64,000 nucleotides of DNA from Desulfobacterales bacterium (GCA_963674755.2 CAXXVS010000002.1:480001-544000); one strand, 5' to 3'; positions 4,733 through 16,835 are shown, counted from the stretch's first letter. Numbers and translations: made by a program. Notes: generated from the sequence alone by a model not told the origin.

Positions 4733-4877
4733 TTACAGCAAAAAAAATAAAATTCAATATTTGATTTTTGTTAAATAGGTGGGTATCGTTCAAACGGCAG
4801 GCGTGATCGTTTTTCCCGCCAATTGACCGATTCATATGAATAGTCGTTGAAGTGCCGCCGTACTTGACCTAATTATA

Positions 4878-5140
4878 TGCAGCGGCACGATTCGCTGAGG
4901 TTCGGAAGCGGACCGCGCCCAAACCGTAATAGCCATCGGGGTGTGCTGCAGGGCGGATCTGCATCGGAGGGGATTCCGGTGCGGCAGACGCTGGGCCTGC
5001 TAGACCTGCCAACGGCCCAAACCTTTCAACAGCAGAGGGCGCCAAGCCGCAGACCGCTGCCGAGGTGTGAGCGCGCGTCTTGTGATCCGCCCTCCGGCCT
5101 GAGAAGGTCTACCGAGGTCGATGGCAATCGGCAACCGATT
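4878..5140 (+). ncRNA. Candidate structured RNA (cis-regulatory leader or ncRNA) of unrecognised family
   Basis: Nested helices: 4878-4888/4941-4950, 4899-4904/4909-4914, 4950-4959/5084-5093 (10 bp), 4961-4969/4974-4982, 4986-4991/5075-5080, 4992-4997/5014-5019, 5022-5026/5034-5038, 5126-5131/5135-5140. G-U wobbles favour the + strand. Confidence 0.55.
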
Positions 5141-5172
5141 CCTATTATCAATCTTTGGCAGTCGAGGAGCTT

Positions 5173-6117
5173 ATGGCCGATCAGTTTTCCAAAAAAATTA
5201 TGCGAAGAGCGTTTGTCAAAACGGTGGTACGAAGAATATTTGCCCTGGTGGCTTTGTGTGGCATGGTCTATGGCCTGGTGGCCCTGGTTTACGCTTCCAA
5301 GACGATCTACAAAGTCAATGAAAACTACGCCGTCGTGCTGGAGCGCTTTGGCGGCCAGCGCCAGGCCATCACGGCCATTGGCTGGCACGTGCGGCTGCCC
5401 TTTTTTACGCGCATCGAACAGGAAGTGTCCCTGATGAACCAGATCCTCAATCTGGGCGGCTCCACGGAACCGATGCGCATCATCACAAAGGAAAACGTGG
5501 CCTTGTGGACGTCGGCCCTGATGACCTATCGGATCCGGAACCTGCATACCTGGGCCATCGAGAATCTTCATCCGCTGCAGCTTTTAAGTGGTGATTATGA
5601 CGGTATTGTCAAAGACATTCTCCAAGCCCAGAAGGTCAATCAGCTGATCAGCGACCGCGAAAGCGTCAAGGAAAAGATATTTAAAGCGCTCAAGTCCCGC
5701 CCCATCAACGAAGGCGGTCCGACCCTGGAACAAAAATACGGCATCGAAGTGGTCAGCTTCGTTTTAAAGGAAACCCGTTTCGGCGATAAGCTGGTCGCGG
5801 CAACCGAAGAAAAAAAGCGCCGCGAGCTGATCGCCGAGGCGGAAAACTATGCCGCCGACCAGGAGGCCAGCCGCATCCGCAAATTGTATGCCGCCTATCT
5901 CGAGGGTATCCAGGCGCTTCAAAAGGGACTGGGGGGCGTCAATCACGCCAATGACACGGCGCTGCTGCAATTCCTGGTGCAGCAGCAGTGGGCCGCCGCC
6001 TACGAGAAAAACCAGACCGGACAGAGTACCATCGTGATCCAGAATACCCAGGATAACGTTCCCCTGGCACTACCCGCTCCGGCACCCAGCCCCACAGGTG
6101 CCAAAAAAGGAGAGTAG
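5173..6117 (+). CDS. SPFH/band-7 (HflK/C, prohibitin-like) membrane protein
   Basis: N-terminal TM helix, VVLERFGG...GWHVRLPF, ITKENV, YGIEVVSFVLKE, coiled coil with AEAE; GAGGAG RBS. Confidence 0.88.
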   Translation: MADQFSKKIMRRAFVKTVVRRIFALVALCGMVYGLVALVYASKTIYKVNENYAVVLERFGGQRQAITAIGWHVRLPFFTRIEQEVSLMNQILNLGGSTEPMRIITKENVALWTSALMTYRIRNLHTWAIENLHPLQLLSGDYDGIVKDILQAQKVNQLISDRESVKEKIFKALKSRPINEGGPTLEQKYGIEVVSFVLKETRFGDKLVAATEEKKRRELIAEAENYAADQEASRIRKLYAAYLEGIQALQKGLGGVNHANDTALLQFLVQQQWAAAYEKNQTGQSTIVIQNTQDNVPLALPAPAPSPTGAKKGE

Positions 6118-9100
6118 TGATGGCGCGTCGGGTCACCAGACAAGTCAAGTATGTTCGCCTGCCGGAAAAGCGTATCCGTGAAATCGATGCCCTGGTTTCC
6201 TCCTGGCCTTACGAGACAAGGGCCTTCATGCGGGCCCGCTTGAACCAGTACAAGCCGCGGACGGGTTTTCTCAATTTTCTGATGGACCGGTTTCTCTTTC
6301 TGGCCGTGGGCGTTCATGACAAAAGCTTTGAAATCATCAACGACCCCGAGGTCATCACGGATTGGCAGATGCGTTTCGAGATCTCCGGGCAGCGCAATCC
6401 CCAGGATGCCTGGAACAAAATTCTCGACAAGGAGATTTCGGCCCGCGATCATCTTTACTTGCTGTCCCTGCTGGACCGGGAACTGCGCGACATCCACGTG
6501 CCCTATGAGCTGCAGTCCCTGTTCGAGAAAATCTACCGCGCCCATCTGCGGAAGGAATACCTTTCCGATCCCGAAGTACCCAAATCCCCGCTGGTTCTGG
6601 TGGTCGGGGTGAGCGGGAGCGGCAAGAGCGCGACCGTGGAAAGGGTCATCGAAGATGTCATTTTCGCCAATGAAATTTTACCGGAAATCGATTTGCAGCA
6701 GAAGAAGGAAGTCATCCTGGCGGATTTGCCCTTCTGGAAAACCATCGAAGAAGTGGATCCGACCCTGGCCTTCGAGATTTCCCGGCGGAACCAAACCCGT
6801 TTTTATCAGGGATTGAGCAAAATTCCGCTCATTCGCTGGCTGTTCAAAAAACGCATTGCCCTCAACCTGACCGAACTGGGTGAGCAGGGTATCCCGGTGG
6901 ATTACGCCATCGTCACCCCCAACGAGTACCAGACGGCCCTGGCCGGCGAACCCGGCAATTACTTTCGCAAGGCCATGGGCGACCCCAAGAAAACGGCCAT
7001 CCGCCATATCGAGGAGGCGCACAGCGCCTTTGGCAAGGCCAGTGAAGAACAGAGCGGACCCCAGCGTCAGCAGCGCACCCTGGTGGATGCGGCCAACATC
7101 ATTTTGGATGAGATTGCCAGCGGCCGGCGCGACTGCGTGCTGGTGGCCACGACTGACCAGCCGGAGCGGATCGATGGCGCGATTTATCGCCGATTCGTGG
7201 AAAAAGGGGCCATCATCGATCTGGGCGACTACTGGCAAAACAAGGCCAATCTGGCGGAAGTCGTCCGCATCGAGCTCCAGCGCAACGATATCCATCTTAT
7301 CGGTCCTGAAAATGCGCTGCCCCGCAGGCAGGTCGACACCCTTCAAGCGGTTGATCTCGATCAGGCGGTCGAGGGCATCTACCGTTTGTTTCGTGAGCGT
7401 AGCCTGACCCTGACACCAGCCTATGTCCGCAAGCTGGTGCATTCCATCATTCAGATTCGCCATACCTTCGATGCGGCCTTTCTGGACGATGCCGATCTCG
7501 TGCGGCAGGCCTTTGAACTGGTGGCCAAGAATACCTATGGCGATCTCTACAAAAGGGTCGTCGATCACATGGATCGTCGGGTGAAGTGGGAGGAGTACAT
7601 CGGCGACATCAAATACGTTTTTTCGGAGATGGCCAACAACTGCCTGCAATATGGTCTCAGCGAGGAAAAGGGCGTTGTGCTCAACGGCCCCCCGGGGGGC
7701 GGAAAGACGTTTCTGGTGCGCACCTGGCTGAGCGAAAACAGCGCCATTCACGACATCGCCACCAGCGCAAGCGCGCTCCAGGATCCGATCAATCCGGTGG
7801 AGGGGGCCGTGGACAATATGGAGAAAGTCTACGACATCGCCAAGATGATCGCCCCCACCGTCATTTTTTTTGACGAAGGTGATGCCCTGGCCCCCAAGCG
7901 CAGCAGCACCGGGGGATCTCCCCAGGACAAGCTGACCAATAAGTTTCTGAGCCTGATCGACGGTGAGATTCCTTTGAACCAGGTGTTTACCGTATTGACC
8001 ACCAACCGGCTCGATATTCTGGACCCGGCCCTGATCCGTTCCAAACGGCTCAAGGTCTTGGAAGTGACCGGCCATCTGCGCAAAAGCGACATCGCGGCTA
8101 TTGTGGCAGCCTCCCTGGGGGATGTGCCGCTCGAAGCGGGGCTTGATCTGTCGGCCGTGGTGGAAGCCGCCCAGAACATCTGTAACACGCCGGCCGATTA
8201 TACGGCCTTTGTGGAAAAGGCGCGCTCGCTGCGCAGCACGGAATATGAAATCATTCTCCGGCTGCGCAAGATTCCCGCCATGTCGGAAAAGGACAACCGC
8301 AACTTTATCAAATTCAATCTCAAGACCCTGCTGGGAATGCTCAACGCCCTGCAGGCGCCGGCCGAGATGATCAACCAGGTTCGCGAACACCCGGGACAAT
8401 TTATTCAACAGCACCGCATGGTGCTGGATCTGATCGCCGGGGTTGAAAACGAGATCCAGTACCCCCTGCGCCGCGCGCATCTGGAATCGGCGCGGAGCGA
8501 GATCTCCCAGAGCCCGGTAAAAAAGGGCAAGGTCCAGCTGGATGAATTCCTGGAGGGCGAACTCAGCGAAGAGCCCCAGGTGGGGTTTATCGTCGGGGTG
8601 GGCGCCAATGACGTCACCGGTGTCCTGCTGCCCATCGCCACCAGCCTCAACTACAAAATGGCCCCAGATAAAGTGTTGGTGACCGGGGCGGTTTCGACAT
8701 CGGCACCTGGAGCGGCCGAGTTGGACATGTCGGTCAAAATGACCCAGCAGTCCGCCCAGGAAGCCCTGACCCTGGTGAAGAACTATCTCCAGCACCTGCA
8801 GCCCAAGATCAGCATCCCCCGGCTGTTCGGGGAGTTTCTCGACCATTACACCATCCACCACCAGCTTTTGACCGCGTCCTACAATGTCGGGGGACCATCG
8901 GCCGGTTATGCGCTGGCCCTCAATACCCTCTCGGCCCTGCTGATGATACCGGTCTTAAACGATTTCGGCGTTACCGGAGCGCCCTGGACACGGGGCGCCA
9001 AAAAAGGCGAAATTGGCGGTTCGGTCATCATCGGCGGTCACAAGAAGAAAACTGAGAAAGTCCTGCTGCACCTCAGACGCATGTACATGCCCCTGCAAAA

Positions 9101-9536
9101 TTACAAGGACCTCGAGATCGATTATCTGGAAAATTACTGGCTCCAGGACAAAGATGTGCTGGGGGTCACCCATTTCGGCGATCTGGTGCCGGAGGTGCTG
9201 TGGCTGGGAGACGAACAGAACATCCGGGTGCAAAACCTGATCGCGACCCGCATTCGCTACAAGCTTGAAAAATGCCGCCAGCTCCAACCCGATCCGGTGT
9301 TGAAGGAACAGATTGTGGAGACCAAAACCATCCTGCGGGAGGAAATGGAGGCGGAGATCATTCGACGGCTGCAAGCCTTGCGCAAATACATGCGCAGCCC
9401 GGTGCGCGATCCCCACATCTCGTTGGAAGAGATTTTCCGCGACGGAGTCCGCAACCCGCGGCAGCGCCTGTCGGCCGTGGCTCAGCTGGTGCGCAACGGA
9501 CTCAACCGGTTTCGTCGGGAGTGCCGTCCGGAATAG
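6117..9536 (+). CDS. Double-AAA+ ATPase (Cdc48/p97-like D1-D2) fused to a C-terminal Lon S16 protease domain
   Basis: Walker A GVSGSGKS and GPPGGGKT; D2 Walker B IFFDEGDALAPKR; SRH TTNRLDILDPALIR; GGPSAG...TG...IGGHKKK Lon catalytic region; start overlaps the SPFH stop. Confidence 0.85.
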   Translation: MMARRVTRQVKYVRLPEKRIREIDALVSSWPYETRAFMRARLNQYKPRTGFLNFLMDRFLFLAVGVHDKSFEIINDPEVITDWQMRFEISGQRNPQDAWNKILDKEISARDHLYLLSLLDRELRDIHVPYELQSLFEKIYRAHLRKEYLSDPEVPKSPLVLVVGVSGSGKSATVERVIEDVIFANEILPEIDLQQKKEVILADLPFWKTIEEVDPTLAFEISRRNQTRFYQGLSKIPLIRWLFKKRIALNLTELGEQGIPVDYAIVTPNEYQTALAGEPGNYFRKAMGDPKKTAIRHIEEAHSAFGKASEEQSGPQRQQRTLVDAANIILDEIASGRRDCVLVATTDQPERIDGAIYRRFVEKGAIIDLGDYWQNKANLAEVVRIELQRNDIHLIGPENALPRRQVDTLQAVDLDQAVEGIYRLFRERSLTLTPAYVRKLVHSIIQIRHTFDAAFLDDADLVRQAFELVAKNTYGDLYKRVVDHMDRRVKWEEYIGDIKYVFSEMANNCLQYGLSEEKGVVLNGPPGGGKTFLVRTWLSENSAIHDIATSASALQDPINPVEGAVDNMEKVYDIAKMIAPTVIFFDEGDALAPKRSSTGGSPQDKLTNKFLSLIDGEIPLNQVFTVLTTNRLDILDPALIRSKRLKVLEVTGHLRKSDIAAIVAASLGDVPLEAGLDLSAVVEAAQNICNTPADYTAFVEKARSLRSTEYEIILRLRKIPAMSEKDNRNFIKFNLKTLLGMLNALQAPAEMINQVREHPGQFIQQHRMVLDLIAGVENEIQYPLRRAHLESARSEISQSPVKKGKVQLDEFLEGELSEEPQVGFIVGVGANDVTGVLLPIATSLNYKMAPDKVLVTGAVSTSAPGAAELDMSVKMTQQSAQEALTLVKNYLQHLQPKISIPRLFGEFLDHYTIHHQLLTASYNVGGPSAGYALALNTLSALLMIPVLNDFGVTGAPWTRGAKKGEIGGSVIIGGHKKKTEKVLLHLRRMYMPLQNYKDLEIDYLENYWLQDKDVLGVTHFGDLVPEVLWLGDEQNIRVQNLIATRIRYKLEKCRQLQPDPVLKEQIVETKTILREEMEAEIIRRLQALRKYMRSPVRDPHISLEEIFRDGVRNPRQRLSAVAQLVRNGLNRFRRECRPE

Positions 9537-9705: not shown

Positions 9706-10179
9706 ATGCCTGCCGAAGCATTCCAGGACAGCTACCCCGATGACCTCAGCCATTGCTACGGATGCGGCCGTCTCAATCCCCACGGACTCCAGATCAAAAG
9801 CACCTGGGAGGGGGAGGAAGCGGTTTGCCGATATACGCCCAAGTCCTACCATACCGCCATACCGGGGTACGTGTACGGCGGTCTGATCGCCTCCTTGATC
9901 GACTGCCACAGCACCGGGACCGCTTCCGCCGCGGCCCGCCGCGCCGCTGGTGATGACGCTGACGCCCAGGAGGCGTTCCGTTTCCTCACCGCCTCGCTGC
10001 ATGTCAACTACCTCAAACCCACCCCGATCGATGCGGTTCTGGAAGTCCGCGCCCAGATCAAAGAGATCAAGGGCCGCAAGGTGGTGATTGCCTCGCGGCT
10101 GATGGCGGGCGGGCAGGTTTGCGCCACCGGGGAAGTGGTTGCCGTTCAGGTGCCGGAACATCTTATGCCCGGTCGTTAG
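9706..10179 (+). CDS. PaaI-family hotdog thioesterase
   Basis: CYGCG, YGGLIASLIDCH, TASLHVNYLKPTP; AAAGGA RBS. Confidence 0.85.
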   Translation: MPAEAFQDSYPDDLSHCYGCGRLNPHGLQIKSTWEGEEAVCRYTPKSYHTAIPGYVYGGLIASLIDCHSTGTASAAARRAAGDDADAQEAFRFLTASLHVNYLKPTPIDAVLEVRAQIKEIKGRKVVIASRLMAGGQVCATGEVVAVQVPEHLMPGR

Positions 10180-10270
10180 CGGCCGGCCGCGGTGGCACCT
10201 TGCGACTGCAGCCGCCGTTATGACGCCGTGGGATGGCGGTGTGCGTGCCATCCGAGGGGAGACTTTGCGG

Positions 10271-10867
10271 ATGGCAGATTGGACGATCCCCCAGGGACAG
10301 AGCGGAACGCCGTCGTCGGAACATCTGCCGCAAAGTCCTTCCATCCGTGCCCTGGCGCTCGGCGCTGTTGTGAGCCTTGTGGTTTTGCTGGGGATGGTTT
10401 CGCTGGACCAGGCCCTCCGGACGCCGGCCGCGCCAAACGGGATTGTCTCCCTCGAACTGGCAGGGTCCCTGGCCGCGGCCCGGCATATCTTGGATTCATG
10501 GCCGGCGGTTGCACGGATTCAGGCCGGTCTCAGCCTGGGTCTGGACTTTTCCTTCCTGGCGGCCTATGCCTTTACGCTGGCCGGCGCCTGCCGCAAAGTG
10601 GCATCTTATCTCCCGCCGGAGCGCATGTGGTGCCGACCCATGGGGGGCGTCCTGGCCAAAGCGGCCTGGGTGACCGGATGTCTGGATGTGGTCGAAAACC
10701 TGGCCCTCATTGAGTTTCTGATCGGCCCGCATCTGGCCTGGCCGCCTGTTCTGGCGGCGTGCTGCGCCTGGCCGAAATTCGGCCTCGCGGCCGTCATTCT
10801 GCTTTATATCGGCCTTGGCGGGGCAATGATCACGGTCCGGCGGTGGCGAACGCCCACTTCCGCGTGA
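10271..10867 (+). CDS. Hypothetical membrane protein (4 TM)
   Basis: Hydrophobic segments; GIVSLELAG and LDVVEN motifs; start uncertain. Confidence 0.65.
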   Translation: MADWTIPQGQSGTPSSEHLPQSPSIRALALGAVVSLVVLLGMVSLDQALRTPAAPNGIVSLELAGSLAAARHILDSWPAVARIQAGLSLGLDFSFLAAYAFTLAGACRKVASYLPPERMWCRPMGGVLAKAAWVTGCLDVVENLALIEFLIGPHLAWPPVLAACCAWPKFGLAAVILLYIGLGGAMITVRRWRTPTSA

Positions 10868-10935
10868 GCACCGGTGCCTTCGGGTGATGGACGCAATGTC
10901 CGGTCGTGGCCCAGCGCGCATTACGAGGTAGAACC

Positions 10936-11484
10936 ATGCGACTTGATATCAAAGACGTGACCGCCGGAGGCGTTCGGATAAGGGCGGACCTCGACCCGGA
11001 GCAGTTGAAGGATCTTGACGCCCTTCTATCCGGCCAGAGCTGCACCTTCCAGGGGGCACTGGCCGTAACGTTGCAGGTCACACCGACAGCAGACATGTTC
11101 CAGGTGACGGGGCGTGTCAATGGAGCCGCTGTTCTGGCCTGCAGCCGCTGCCTGGCGCCGGTCCAATGGCCCTTAAACGCCGATTTCACCCTAACCTTCA
11201 CCCGTCGCCTGCCCGGCGATGCCTTGGACGAGCCGCCGGAATCCCGCGAGCTCGAGGCGGAGGAATTGGGGGTGGTGCTGTTCGAAGGCGATGCGATCGA
11301 TTTCCGGGATGCTATCCAGGAGCAGGTGATCATGGCCCTGCCCATGCAACCCCTCTGCCGGAAAGACTGCCAGGGCTTGTGCACCCAATGCGGAGCCAAC
11401 CTGAATGACGGGCCGTGCCGTTGCTCCGGGAAGGATGTCGATCCGCGTCTGGCCGTTTTAAAAAACCTTAAACTGGATGGATAA
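10936..11484 (+). CDS. YceD/DUF177 family metal-binding protein
   Basis: CSRCL and LPMQPLCRKDCQGLCTQCGANLN...DPRLAVLK. Confidence 0.9.
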   Translation: MRLDIKDVTAGGVRIRADLDPEQLKDLDALLSGQSCTFQGALAVTLQVTPTADMFQVTGRVNGAAVLACSRCLAPVQWPLNADFTLTFTRRLPGDALDEPPESRELEAEELGVVLFEGDAIDFRDAIQEQVIMALPMQPLCRKDCQGLCTQCGANLNDGPCRCSGKDVDPRLAVLKNLKLDG

Positions 11485-14307: not shown

Positions 14308-15579
14308 ATGATCCGATTCGACGCGCTGCCCTATACCAACGCCCCCCTGCCCACCCATTGCCCTGTTACCGGATTACCGATCTACGGCCACTCCAGCTGG
14401 ACCTATAGCAGTCCCGGCGGCAGCTACCGTTTGCGGGTGAGCTTCATCGGCGACCGGATCGTTTGGTTGCAGCCCACGGGCTATGTCCGTTTAGCGTACG
14501 CCCAGGCGGGAATGGCGCTCCTGGAAGACGTGCTTTTTTCCATGCTGCCCAAAGCGTCGCCGTTTATTGCCATCGACGATTACTCGGCCATCAGCGGGGC
14601 CACCCTCAACGCCCGGCGGTTCGTCATTCAGACGCTGCGTCAGGAACGACGCATGCGAAGCTATATCGTCTACGGCGCACCACCTGTATTTCGCCTGGGG
14701 CTCGGTTTGAGCCGGCGGTTCAGGCTCTTTCCCTTCGAAGCCGTGATCGCCCGTAATTATGATGAAGCGGTCACGGCCGCGCATGTCCGCCTATACCGGG
14801 CGGAAAACCATTCCGAGGAAAGATCTAACGCGTCCCGCTCCGCCGCTGATGGCGAAATCGATGGTGCCGGCCTGGCAACCGATAACGCCGGGGACCCGCT
14901 GGCCCCCTATGCAGATGAACTGCTGGACATCGTGGGCAGCATCACCTTGGAGCCTTACGGGATGGTGCCGGTCTCACGAACGGTGCCTCTGGATCACCCT
15001 TTGCGTCCGGTTTACGACGCTCTGGGGTTGCTCCGGGAAGACATGCAAGCTATTCTCCGAGGTCATCGTGAAGCCCGCGCCAAGGTCGAGGGACGCGAAA
15101 AAGAGCTGATGGAAAAGCAGATCCTGCTCAACGAGACCCATACGACCCTCAATGTCTTGGTCCACACCCGGCAAGAGGAACGTCGGCGGTTTGAAGCGCG
15201 GATCAAAGACCGTTTTCAGACCTTGCTGCAGCCGCTCCTGGAGGGCTTTGAAAGCACCGTCATGACCCCCCGCCAACGCGAGCTGGTCCAGTTGCTCCGT
15301 CAAATGTTGCGCCATATCGGCGTCTGTCTGGCAAGCGAGGAACATGTTGTGCGAAAGGCGTTCACATCCCGGGAGCGCTTGATCGCCTATCTGCTGATCC
15401 TGGGGAAGAGCCCGCACGCGATCGCCCGCCTTTTAGAATGCTCGCCCCGCACCGTCGCGAACCATTGCCAGCGGATGCGCGCTAAGATCGGACTGGCCGG
15501 GCGCGTTCCCACGCTGCAGGACTGGCTGAGCGGGCAGGTTTCCACCGAACTTGAGCAAGCGGGGCGAGGGCGCCCATGA
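14308..15579 (+). CDS. LuxR-type HTH regulator with uncharacterised N-terminal sensor domain
   Basis: C-terminal FTSRERLIA...IARLLECSPRTVANH; N-terminal CPVTGLPI domain; coiled-coil linker. Confidence 0.8.
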   Translation: MIRFDALPYTNAPLPTHCPVTGLPIYGHSSWTYSSPGGSYRLRVSFIGDRIVWLQPTGYVRLAYAQAGMALLEDVLFSMLPKASPFIAIDDYSAISGATLNARRFVIQTLRQERRMRSYIVYGAPPVFRLGLGLSRRFRLFPFEAVIARNYDEAVTAAHVRLYRAENHSEERSNASRSAADGEIDGAGLATDNAGDPLAPYADELLDIVGSITLEPYGMVPVSRTVPLDHPLRPVYDALGLLREDMQAILRGHREARAKVEGREKELMEKQILLNETHTTLNVLVHTRQEERRRFEARIKDRFQTLLQPLLEGFESTVMTPRQRELVQLLRQMLRHIGVCLASEEHVVRKAFTSRERLIAYLLILGKSPHAIARLLECSPRTVANHCQRMRAKIGLAGRVPTLQDWLSGQVSTELEQAGRGRP

Positions 15580-16835
15580 GCCGTGCAGGCCGTTCCGTCA
15601 TTTCCGCTGATCCCGAAAGCTTCCCCTCCCGATGCCCTTTCTCCGGTCTCCCCATCGATACCCGGAAAGAATGGCAGTTCACCAATGCCGCCCAAACCTA
15701 TCGGACCGCCATCGCCCTGATCGGCAAGCTTATCTTCTGGGTGGTCCCCCGGGGCTACGTCACGGAGAATGACATGCAGCAGGCCATCCGGATGGCCGCC
15801 GGCATCAAGGCCGAGGTTCGTCCCGGCAATGCCCCGTTCGTCTTTATCGAGGATTTCCGCCATGTGAAAGGGGGCACCGCCGCCGCCCGCCGCCTCTATC
15901 TCGAGTTTACCAATTCCCTGGACGGGCTCTTGGGCTCCTTCCATTACGGCCTGCCGCCCTTTTTCCGCCTTAGTTTCAACCTCTCCCGCAGACTGCACCT
16001 GCATCGCTACCGGGTGCGGATGGTCCCGCGTTACGAAGACGCCGTCCATTCCGCCCTGGCGCTTTTAAAAGAGAATGGCCTGGCCATTCCGTCGGCAGCT
16101 TTCCCGCTGCGCCTTTTGCCTGAGGAAAAGGGGCCAGGGGAGGCCGGCCGGCCGGCCTTGCCGCCGCTGAGCGCTGCGTCTGACCACCTCTCCGCTCATG
16201 TGGACCTGCTCCTGGCCCATCTGGGTGAGCTCGATCTGGAACGCCCCGGAATCCCGGAGCCCCCCAGGGCGGCCCGGACCAGCGCCATGCAGCCTGTATA
16301 TGAAGCCCTTACGTTCCTCAAGTTGGATATGGACCAGTTTCTGGCGGAGCACCGCAGCCTCATGGACGCCCAGAGGGAACGCCATCAGAAGCTTCTCCAA
16401 AAAACGGCGGCCATCGAAGCCCGCAACCGGGAGCTGCAAGCCTTGCTGCAGAAAAGTGGGGAAGACCAGACCCGCTTGGGTGAGAACGCACGCTGCAACG
16501 TTCAAACGCTTTTGAAACCCCTGATCGCGATGATGGCCCGGGATGCCCGCAGCACGGAACAGCGGGAATGGATCGACGGCCTCAACGAGCGAATCGATGA
16601 TCTGGCCCACGACCTCCTTCCGCGTCTCGATTTAGGCAGCTATCGATTGACGCCCCGGGAAATTCGCATCGCGCGGATGATTCGGGATGGTGCCCGGTCG
16701 CAAACCATCGCCCGTCAACTGGGGCTGTCGATACGTACGGTGGAGTCCTTTCGCCGCCGGTTGCGGGATAAACTGGGCATCCGCGGCCAGCCGCGGAATT
16801 TGCGCACATTGCTGCTGACGATTCCGGACCACTGA
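15576..16835 (+). CDS. LuxR-type HTH regulator, tandem paralog of the preceding gene
   Basis: LTPREIRIA...IARQLGLSIRTVESFR; N-terminal CPFSGLPI; ATGA overlap. Confidence 0.82.
   Translation: MSRAGRSVISADPESFPSRCPFSGLPIDTRKEWQFTNAAQTYRTAIALIGKLIFWVVPRGYVTENDMQQAIRMAAGIKAEVRPGNAPFVFIEDFRHVKGGTAAARRLYLEFTNSLDGLLGSFHYGLPPFFRLSFNLSRRLHLHRYRVRMVPRYEDAVHSALALLKENGLAIPSAAFPLRLLPEEKGPGEAGRPALPPLSAASDHLSAHVDLLLAHLGELDLERPGIPEPPRAARTSAMQPVYEALTFLKLDMDQFLAEHRSLMDAQRERHQKLLQKTAAIEARNRELQALLQKSGEDQTRLGENARCNVQTLLKPLIAMMARDARSTEQREWIDGLNERIDDLAHDLLPRLDLGSYRLTPREIRIARMIRDGARSQTIARQLGLSIRTVESFRRRLRDKLGIRGQPRNLRTLLLTIPDH

Follow-up and report, generated by a model that had tools for sequence, protein, structure and literature searches.

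A candidate membrane-associated protease of Desulfobacterales that joins a Cdc48-related tandem AAA motor to a Lon-fold peptidase and is encoded beside an SPFH gene

Results

Two adjacent genes encode an SPFH protein and a large predicted protease

We have analyzed a 64,000-nucleotide stretch of a Desulfobacterales bacterium genome (GCA_963674755.2, CAXXVS010000002.1:480001-544000; hereafter the window), in which two adjacent plus-strand genes encode an SPFH protein and a large predicted ATP-dependent protease. We show here, by sequence comparison and structure modelling, that the second protein would combine a Cdc48-related tandem AAA motor with a fused Lon-fold Ser-Lys peptidase, and the pair probably serves as a further route by which proteins are removed at the cell membrane. 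The SPFH/Band 7 gene (5173..6117; ATG 5173 to TAG 6117) codes for 314 amino acids (aa), is preceded by a GAGGAG ribosome binding site at 5164-5169, and its product belongs to Pfam PF01145, with matches to QmcA, erlin and stomatin. The protease gene (6117..9536; GTG 6117 to TAG 9536) codes for 1139 aa arranged as an N-terminal domain, two AAA modules and a Lon domain. Both open reading frames (ORFs) lie where the initial annotation of this DNA had placed them, and every motif that it quoted is present, with Ser928 at codon 8898 and Lys978 at codon 9048; its AAA modules, Lon region and SPFH linkage all stand, and what it overlooked is a 78-residue insertion in the first AAA module, the loss of the pore loop and the topology of the SPFH protein.

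At the gene junction (6108..6122, plus strand) an AGGAG sequence is followed by the SPFH stop codon (TAG, 6115-6117), the GTG at 6117 and an ATG at 6120, with a spacing of the coupling type, and among 84 loci short gaps or overlaps are the commonest arrangement. The ATG at 6120 appears to be the likelier protease start, because the AGGAG lies at 6108-6112 and the closest homologues are 1138 aa long; residue numbers given here count from the GTG at 6117. The Pfam Band_7 profile (PF01145) matches residues 47-232 of the SPFH protein (E 5e-17; 62.9 bits against a cut-off of 23.6), and the protease matches AAA in two stretches (E 9.9e-27) and Lon_C over residues 810-1000 (27 bits, the cut-off being 21.1); neither protein reaches any NCBIfam family cut-off. 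A structure model of the whole enzyme has a predicted local distance difference test (pLDDT) score of 82.5 and a predicted template modelling (pTM) score of 0.68. Its N-terminal domain (residues 1-150; 6117..6566, plus strand) has no Pfam match and is mostly helical over residues 17-144 in the model, which points to a helical domain and not to the beta-barrel N-domain of Cdc48.

The C-terminal region is a predicted Lon-type peptidase

The Lon (S16) peptidase domain (residues 815-1030; 8559..9206, plus strand) contains Ser928 (8898-8900) in a GGPSAG motif and Lys978 (9048-9050). Its best profile match is Archaeoglobus fulgidus LonB (E 8e-8), and Foldseek also returns Lon (E 3.9e-11). Modelled alone (pLDDT 85), the region superimposes on Thermococcus onnurineus LonB (3k1j) with Z 19.6 and a root-mean-square deviation (rmsd) of 3.6 over 206 aligned residues; in a search of 48,161 chains the ten best structure matches are all LonA, LonB, LonC or LonBA (Z 17.6-19.6), with RadA, BrxL and ComM ranking below the Lon domains.

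Conservation was assessed in an alignment of 146 rows, consisting of the query, 108 of 120 listed close matches, three further close sequences and 34 distant ones. Ser928 and Lys978 are kept in 141/141 rows that have the domain, while the adjacent K976 and K977 vary; the five rows without the dyad are N-terminal halves of split genes. The Ser-Lys spacing is 49 in all 141 sequences that have both residues, compared to 42 in LonA and LonB as given in an excerpt of PMC9569914, and the seven-residue insertion relative to Lon described earlier is thus confirmed. A proline precedes the catalytic serine, a LonA-like motif, where LonB has an aspartate. The ratio of nonsynonymous to synonymous substitution (dN/dS) in the Lon domain is 0.003-0.019 in three pairwise comparisons. 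The suggestion that the C-terminus folds as Lon is therefore well founded, and both sequence and model support a peptidase of Lon fold whose Ser-Lys dyad is conserved and for which proteolytic activity is predicted. A C-terminal helical hairpin (residues 1032-1093) and an amphipathic tail helix (1114-1134) complete the protein (9210..9533, plus strand); the tail helix occurs only in the bacterial clade.

The motor consists of two AAA modules closest to Cdc48

The first AAA module, D1 (residues 155-485; 6579..7571), has the Walker A sequence GVSGSGKS (6606-6629), the pore loop L-A-G (6939-6947), the Walker B sequence IRHIEE (6999-7016) and an RRF-type arginine finger. In the second, D2 (residues 486-715; 7572..8261), GPPGGGKT, FFDE and TTN..R641..R644 are all canonical. 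A helical insertion in the D2 lid follows (residues 716-800; 8262..8516), at the start of which lies the split point of the Pacearchaeota form described below; all of these features are on the plus strand.

Cdc48/p97 proteins are the best solved-structure sequence matches of the motor and the best Foldseek match of the full model (E 1e-20, spanning both AAA modules); 487 residues align with Cdc48/p97 over positions 124-834 at an rmsd of about 9, so that the relative placement of the modules differs. All 35 classified non-family matches (35 of 59, among the best 150 representatives) fit TIGR01243 (CDC48) best, and the protease itself scores 80.4 bits with this profile and does not reach its cut-off of 802.65. 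D1 is weakly Cdc48-like by sequence, the best AAA match of its profile being D1 of yeast Cdc48 (E 0.007). Two classical-clade AAA modules, as the initial annotation had them, are thus supported by Pfam, Foldseek and the CDC48 preference of non-family matches, and Cdc48 is their closest predicted relative.

The Walker A lysine of D1 is present in 144/144 rows and its Walker B glutamate, E300, in 145/145, the RR finger is kept, and the D1-core dN/dS is 0.04-0.06 relative to three relatives; because E300 is universal and this ratio is low, the D1 Walker B seems to be unusual and not decaying. The Walker A lysine, Walker B glutamate, sensor-1 and both arginine fingers of D2 are invariant, and the dN/dS of its catalytic motifs, 0.012-0.026, denotes very strong selection. 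In a FastTree phylogeny of D2 the system's modules form one clade (support 1.0) on a branch of 1.75, within the Cdc48 D2 group (0.80), which is weak evidence for an origin within Cdc48 D2, as the outgroup was picked by similarity and holds no PAN or Vps4 rows.

The D1 pore loop is L-A in 111/112 bacterial rows (L-A-G), and W-Y-G in most distant rows (W in 30/33, Y in 31/33). In the bacterial clade the D2 pore position is of DPxNP type, and none of the commonest variants of either clade has an aromatic residue there.

The SPFH and protease genes are co-inherited

The SPFH gene lies directly upstream of the protease gene in 66/66 evaluable genome loci (73 loci, seven at contig ends) and in 66/66 evaluable further loci (89 loci, 23 at contig ends), the latter set being partly redundant; the named loci are from Desulfobacterales and related Deltaproteobacteria. 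The protease is present in 90 of 401 genomes of the order and an SPFH orthologue in 89 of those 90, compared to 0/311 protease-negative genomes, so that the linkage to SPFH noted initially holds for the bacterial homologues examined; the one archaeal-type locus retrieved, L121, carries no DNA upstream of the gene. In the sole exception, G609, a deletion took most of the SPFH gene together with the N-domain and D1, and at this locus (G609:C12, L215 5423-7683, minus strand) brings the SPFH N-terminus next to the beginning of D2 in a different frame; an in-frame SPFH-D2-Lon fusion was rejected because the reading frame does not continue, and the locus is either a decayed copy or an assembly error. 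In the bacteria examined the two genes are always co-inherited. The system is single copy and stable within genera (8/8 in its own genus), and is found in 10/400 genomes of a phylum-wide sample. Between the two proteins the pairwise identities are correlated (r 0.91 over 80 pairs), which is also what shared descent would lead to.

A basic insertion in D1 and the predicted topology of the SPFH protein

A 78-residue helical insertion (6669..6893, plus strand) lies between the Walker A motif and the pore loop of D1, such that K170 and G277 are separated by 107 positions in 112/112 bacterial rows, compared to 29 in nine Cdc48 modules. Within it, a basic and aromatic segment (residues 221-246; 6777-6854, plus strand) has a net charge of +6 to +13 in 112/112 bacterial rows; in 32 distant rows the range is +2 to +11. 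The membrane anchor of LonB sits in an analogous place, between Walker A and Walker B, in the part of PMC9569914 cited above. The enzyme has no transmembrane helix, as was first proposed, its highest 19-residue Kyte-Doolittle (KD) mean being 1.98 (138 full-length homologues). The basic insertion is a candidate peripheral membrane contact, and by its sequence a likelier one than caging by SPFH.

The SPFH protein contains a single transmembrane helix (residues 22-40; 5236..5292, plus strand; KD 2.41) with seven K/R residues before it and three after, followed by the Band 7 domain (residues 47-232; 5311..5868, plus strand) and a highly conserved helical region at about 202-250. K/R residues are more numerous N-terminal to the helix in 79/80 homologues (mean 6.1 vs 3.9), the reverse of a stomatin-like paralogue in the same genome (one before, four after), and the protein lacks a further hydrophobic stretch of the kind that a hairpin would need (maximum KD 1.11). 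The N-terminal tail is thus predicted to be inside and the domain periplasmic, and as the SPFH dome would lie opposite a soluble, ATP-using enzyme, direct caging seems unlikely. The initial annotation had envisaged an SPFH oligomer caging the enzyme as part of a parallel HflKC-FtsH-like machine; the cage is not supported by this charge bias, which would put the SPFH domain across the membrane, whereas a classical AAA protease strictly linked to SPFH remains. There are precedents for such an arrangement in published excerpts, in which HflK/C is periplasmic while the FtsH AAA is cytoplasmic (PMC12048511), and the erlin cage is lumenal (bioRxiv 10.1101/2025.06.14.659634). A complex prediction for enzyme residues 1-479 with SPFH residues 1-300 gave a score of 0.14 and a mark of 0.32, which we have counted neither for nor against binding. 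A Tat signal in the SPFH protein (RRAFVK) was considered and rejected, as RRxF[VLI]K occurs in only 35/80 homologues.

Archaeal relatives and a two-component form

Among the fused homologues with 33-38% identity are proteins labelled Woesearchaeota and Nanoarchaeota (DPANN archaea), and in the D2 FastTree phylogeny the bacterial clade (0.95) is nested among archaeal-type fused homologues, which suggests an archaeal donor. The family also includes split members. Five proteins, 695-733 aa long, share one end point after D2, and another seven, of 397-405 aa, begin at this split point with their own methionine and keep the dyad; the AAA-AAA halves are P0134 and P0296-P0299, the Lon halves P0146 and P0300-P0305, with P0357/P0358 also members of the split form. 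Three split-half pairs match in source and in the length of the longest contig, and MCK5043686.1 (720 aa) and MCK5043685.1 (403 aa), cluster mates of the split halves, have adjacent accessions in Ca. Pacearchaeota. Split rows are nested among fused ones in the same phylogeny, and the conserved fission suggests that the two parts, motor and peptidase, can function on different polypeptides.

Two other proteins deserve mention. P0153 (595 aa), a single sequence, fuses an EACC1-associated caspase to a Lon-like domain and the C-terminal hairpin of this protease type; its Lon-like domain is without the GPSAG and Lys motifs and is possibly a decoy or sensor. The ESM Atlas contains a second archaeal type of about 910 aa (AAA, AAA_5, Lon_C; 118 and 110 members) in Bathyarchaeia/Thermoproteota, which is probably distant or independent, because it was not identified among the best 150 homologue matches.

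Genomic context

There is no third conserved gene, the next real neighbour being present in 37/83 loci. The genes downstream in the window (9706-11484) encode a hotdog thioesterase, a 198-aa protein without a Pfam family, and YceD, none of which is among the commonest neighbours in related loci, and an overlapping ORF at 4877-5434 has no family match. A sigma-70-like pattern is present in 14/77 upstream regions, compared to 0.7 in shuffles, and a promoter scan of the window gave three against 1.5, which is not above chance. One RNA run (share 0.05) gave short contigs, mostly diverged pieces, and is not counted as expression evidence. Viral contigs have no match to the system, and plasmids one partial 28% match with no full-length match.

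The host genome also encodes three intact FtsH proteins, three full-length LonA-like proteins and ten SPFH genes, and the SPFH-protease pair is thus an additional system. Elsewhere in this genome (G000:C1:706823-712309) two SPFH genes are flanked by two FtsH peptidase matches, one of them with an internal TAG. Within the window, two tandem ORFs of similar layout (423 and 419 aa) lie at 14308-16835, the ends of which resemble what we take to be LuxR-type helix-turn-helix motifs, and the segment 36001-38000 is 39.5% G+C, compared to about 60% elsewhere.

Discussion

A proposed mechanism and its alternatives

We lean, with only modest confidence, towards a membrane-associated ATP-dependent protease acting under an SPFH ring on the other side of the membrane. 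The enzyme would form a ring in the cytoplasm, presumably of six subunits as in all AAA and Lon proteins, with its N-domain and basic D1 insertion held against the inner membrane face. The SPFH ring, with a periplasmic dome, would use its transmembrane helices to fence a membrane patch, in which it may collect or gate membrane proteins in the manner of HflK/C, prohibitin and erlin rings; the basic 21-residue N-terminal tail, the only SPFH part predicted to be cytoplasmic, and the shared membrane patch could couple the two. Substrates would pass from D1 to D2 and into the Lon chamber, to be cut by Ser928/Lys978. Archaeal members may grip in D1 with the W-Y-G loop; as the bacterial clade has lost this grip, its substrates are probably peptides or proteins that are loosely folded or have been released beforehand, or else an adaptor is required.

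Several observations weigh against this proposal. The main doubt regarding the enzyme is that the bacterial form has no aromatic pore residue in either ring, which makes processive unfolding uncertain, since threading by FtsH and by D2 of Cdc48 requires it (PMC5511170). D1 lacks the Walker B aspartate and the sensor-1 asparagine, asparagine or glutamine replaces the D2 Walker B aspartate in 13/33 distant rows, and in a comparison by structure alone D2 matches proteasomal Rpt subunits equally well (Z 22.6). With a hydrophobic moment of 0.30-0.46, the D1 insertion is basic more than amphipathic and could bind a non-lipid partner, the periplasmic SPFH domain is a prediction from charge counts only, and HflK-like paralogues have a weak K/R bias (4 vs 3). 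With its own FtsH, LonA-like and SPFH sets the host already has general quality control covered; the related genomes are not independent observations; and CIRCE, CtsR, sigma-32 and sigma-54 consensus patterns are found in 0/77 upstream regions, for which reason heat-shock control of the operon was rejected.

Some of these same features would be expected of a regulatory or limited-processing protease. Its AAA rings would serve as an ATP-gated filter or switch and not as a processive unfoldase, and its Lon chamber would act on one specific target or a few of them, among which could be the SPFH protein or a protein that it holds. NfeD/stomatin pairs probably act as limited-processing proteases, and the lost aromatic pore loops (111/112 bacterial rows), the non-canonical Walker B residues, the invariant seven-residue insertion beside the active site, the strict one-to-one pairing with SPFH and the redundancy with host FtsH and LonA all fit; the invariant, strongly selected D2 motifs do not, and the W-Y-G loop of distant members points to a threading ancestor, so that we consider this unlikely, albeit the strongest of the alternatives. 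It is less probable again that the SPFH domain is cytoplasmic, as in QmcA or stomatin, and acts as a direct cage or anchor for the soluble enzyme. Among solved structures the SPFH sequence fits QmcA best (E 3.4e-5) and its profile fits stomatin best, and the enzyme has no transmembrane helix, but the N-in bias, opposite to that of the stomatin-like paralogue, and the lack of a hairpin segment argue against it.

An anti-phage or conflict system, with a membrane ring that senses damage and a protease as effector or activator, is the least probable of these readings, and we regard it as very improbable. Its patchy spread (89/400 genomes in the order and 10/400 in the phylum sample), the probable transfer between archaea and bacteria, the use of Lon-fold domains in BrxL and CalpL, and the derived protein joining a Lon-like domain to an EACC1-type caspase are compatible with defence; however, PADLOC gives only generic AAA matches and none for SPFH, the recurring neighbours are not defence-like by a reading of cluster representatives (no family search was made), evolution is slow, the gene is single copy and stable within genera, and viral and full-length plasmid matches are absent.

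Returning to the membrane-associated protease, a bolder formulation, which on balance seems to us doubtful, is that it constitutes a distinct class beside Lon, FtsH, ClpXP/AP, HslUV and the proteasome, in which a Cdc48-derived double ring with a Lon chamber extracts membrane proteins from an SPFH-fenced patch with no membrane-spanning part of its own, as a ubiquitin-free prokaryotic counterpart of erlin/p97; such a class would have arisen in or near DPANN archaea, exist as a fused or (in Pacearchaeota) two-component enzyme, and in its bacterial form thread without aromatic pore loops. To our knowledge, every energy-dependent protease described in prokaryotes is built on a single, fixed pairing of motor and peptidase. 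The system, which occurs in roughly one in five genomes of a major order of sulfate reducers and also in DPANN archaea, offers three natural experiments: its fused and split forms ask whether a Lon chamber, like ClpP, can be served by a motor from a separate gene; its aromatic and non-aromatic pore loops, whether an AAA protease can thread without them; and an SPFH partner to a protease that does not span the membrane, what an SPFH ring contributes to proteolysis.

Relationship to known systems

No description of an AAA-AAA-Lon_C protein with SPFH was found in a search of open-access literature by titles and abstract starts, and the Lon architecture table of PMC2605481 has no AAA-AAA-Lon_C entry. 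A Lon protease with a Cdc48-type motor is thus apparently undescribed, in agreement with the initial view that the architecture was not one already characterized.

The enzyme resembles Cdc48/p97/VAT in its tandem classical AAA modules and in its best sequence and Foldseek matches, and shares the L-A-G D1 pore loop of the bacterial form with eukaryotic p97; it departs from them in its apparently helical N-domain and its D1 insertion, in having no aromatic-X-Gly D2 pore loop, in scoring far below the CDC48 family cut-off, and in having a fused or adjacent Lon peptidase in place of the proteasome. With Lon (MEROPS S16: LonA, LonB, LonC, LonBA) it has in common the peptidase fold and Ser-Lys dyad, with LonA the proline before the serine, and with LonB, whose archaeal domains are the nearest sequence and structure matches, an insertion between Walker A and B. 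Unlike that of LonB, its insertion has no transmembrane helix; unlike LonA and LonB it has two Cdc48-type modules and not a single Lon-type AAA+ module; and it differs from Lon in its Ser-Lys spacing (49, not 42), in having no LON N-domain and in falling below all Lon equivalog cut-offs.

FtsH-HflK/C and the m-AAA-prohibitin system provide the closest functional parallel, with a classical AAA protease that has a genetic link to an SPFH ring located across the membrane from it, a location that is here predicted from charge. In contrast to FtsH, the enzyme is an S16 serine peptidase and not an M41 zinc peptidase, has two AAA rings, and has no transmembrane or periplasmic domain for a cage to hold, and there is one SPFH gene where HflK/C has two. 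p97 acts with Erlin1/2 in endoplasmic reticulum-associated degradation, where the layout is similar, with an SPFH cage in the lumen and a soluble ATPase of two rings across the membrane; here there is no ubiquitin system, and the protease is built into the motor. SPFH genes are also paired with a serine protease gene in NfeD-stomatin/QmcA operons, which differ in that NfeD is an ATP-independent membrane protease of the ClpP class. The enzyme would work like FtsH-HflK/C, yet lies outside the FtsH, Lon and Cdc48 families.

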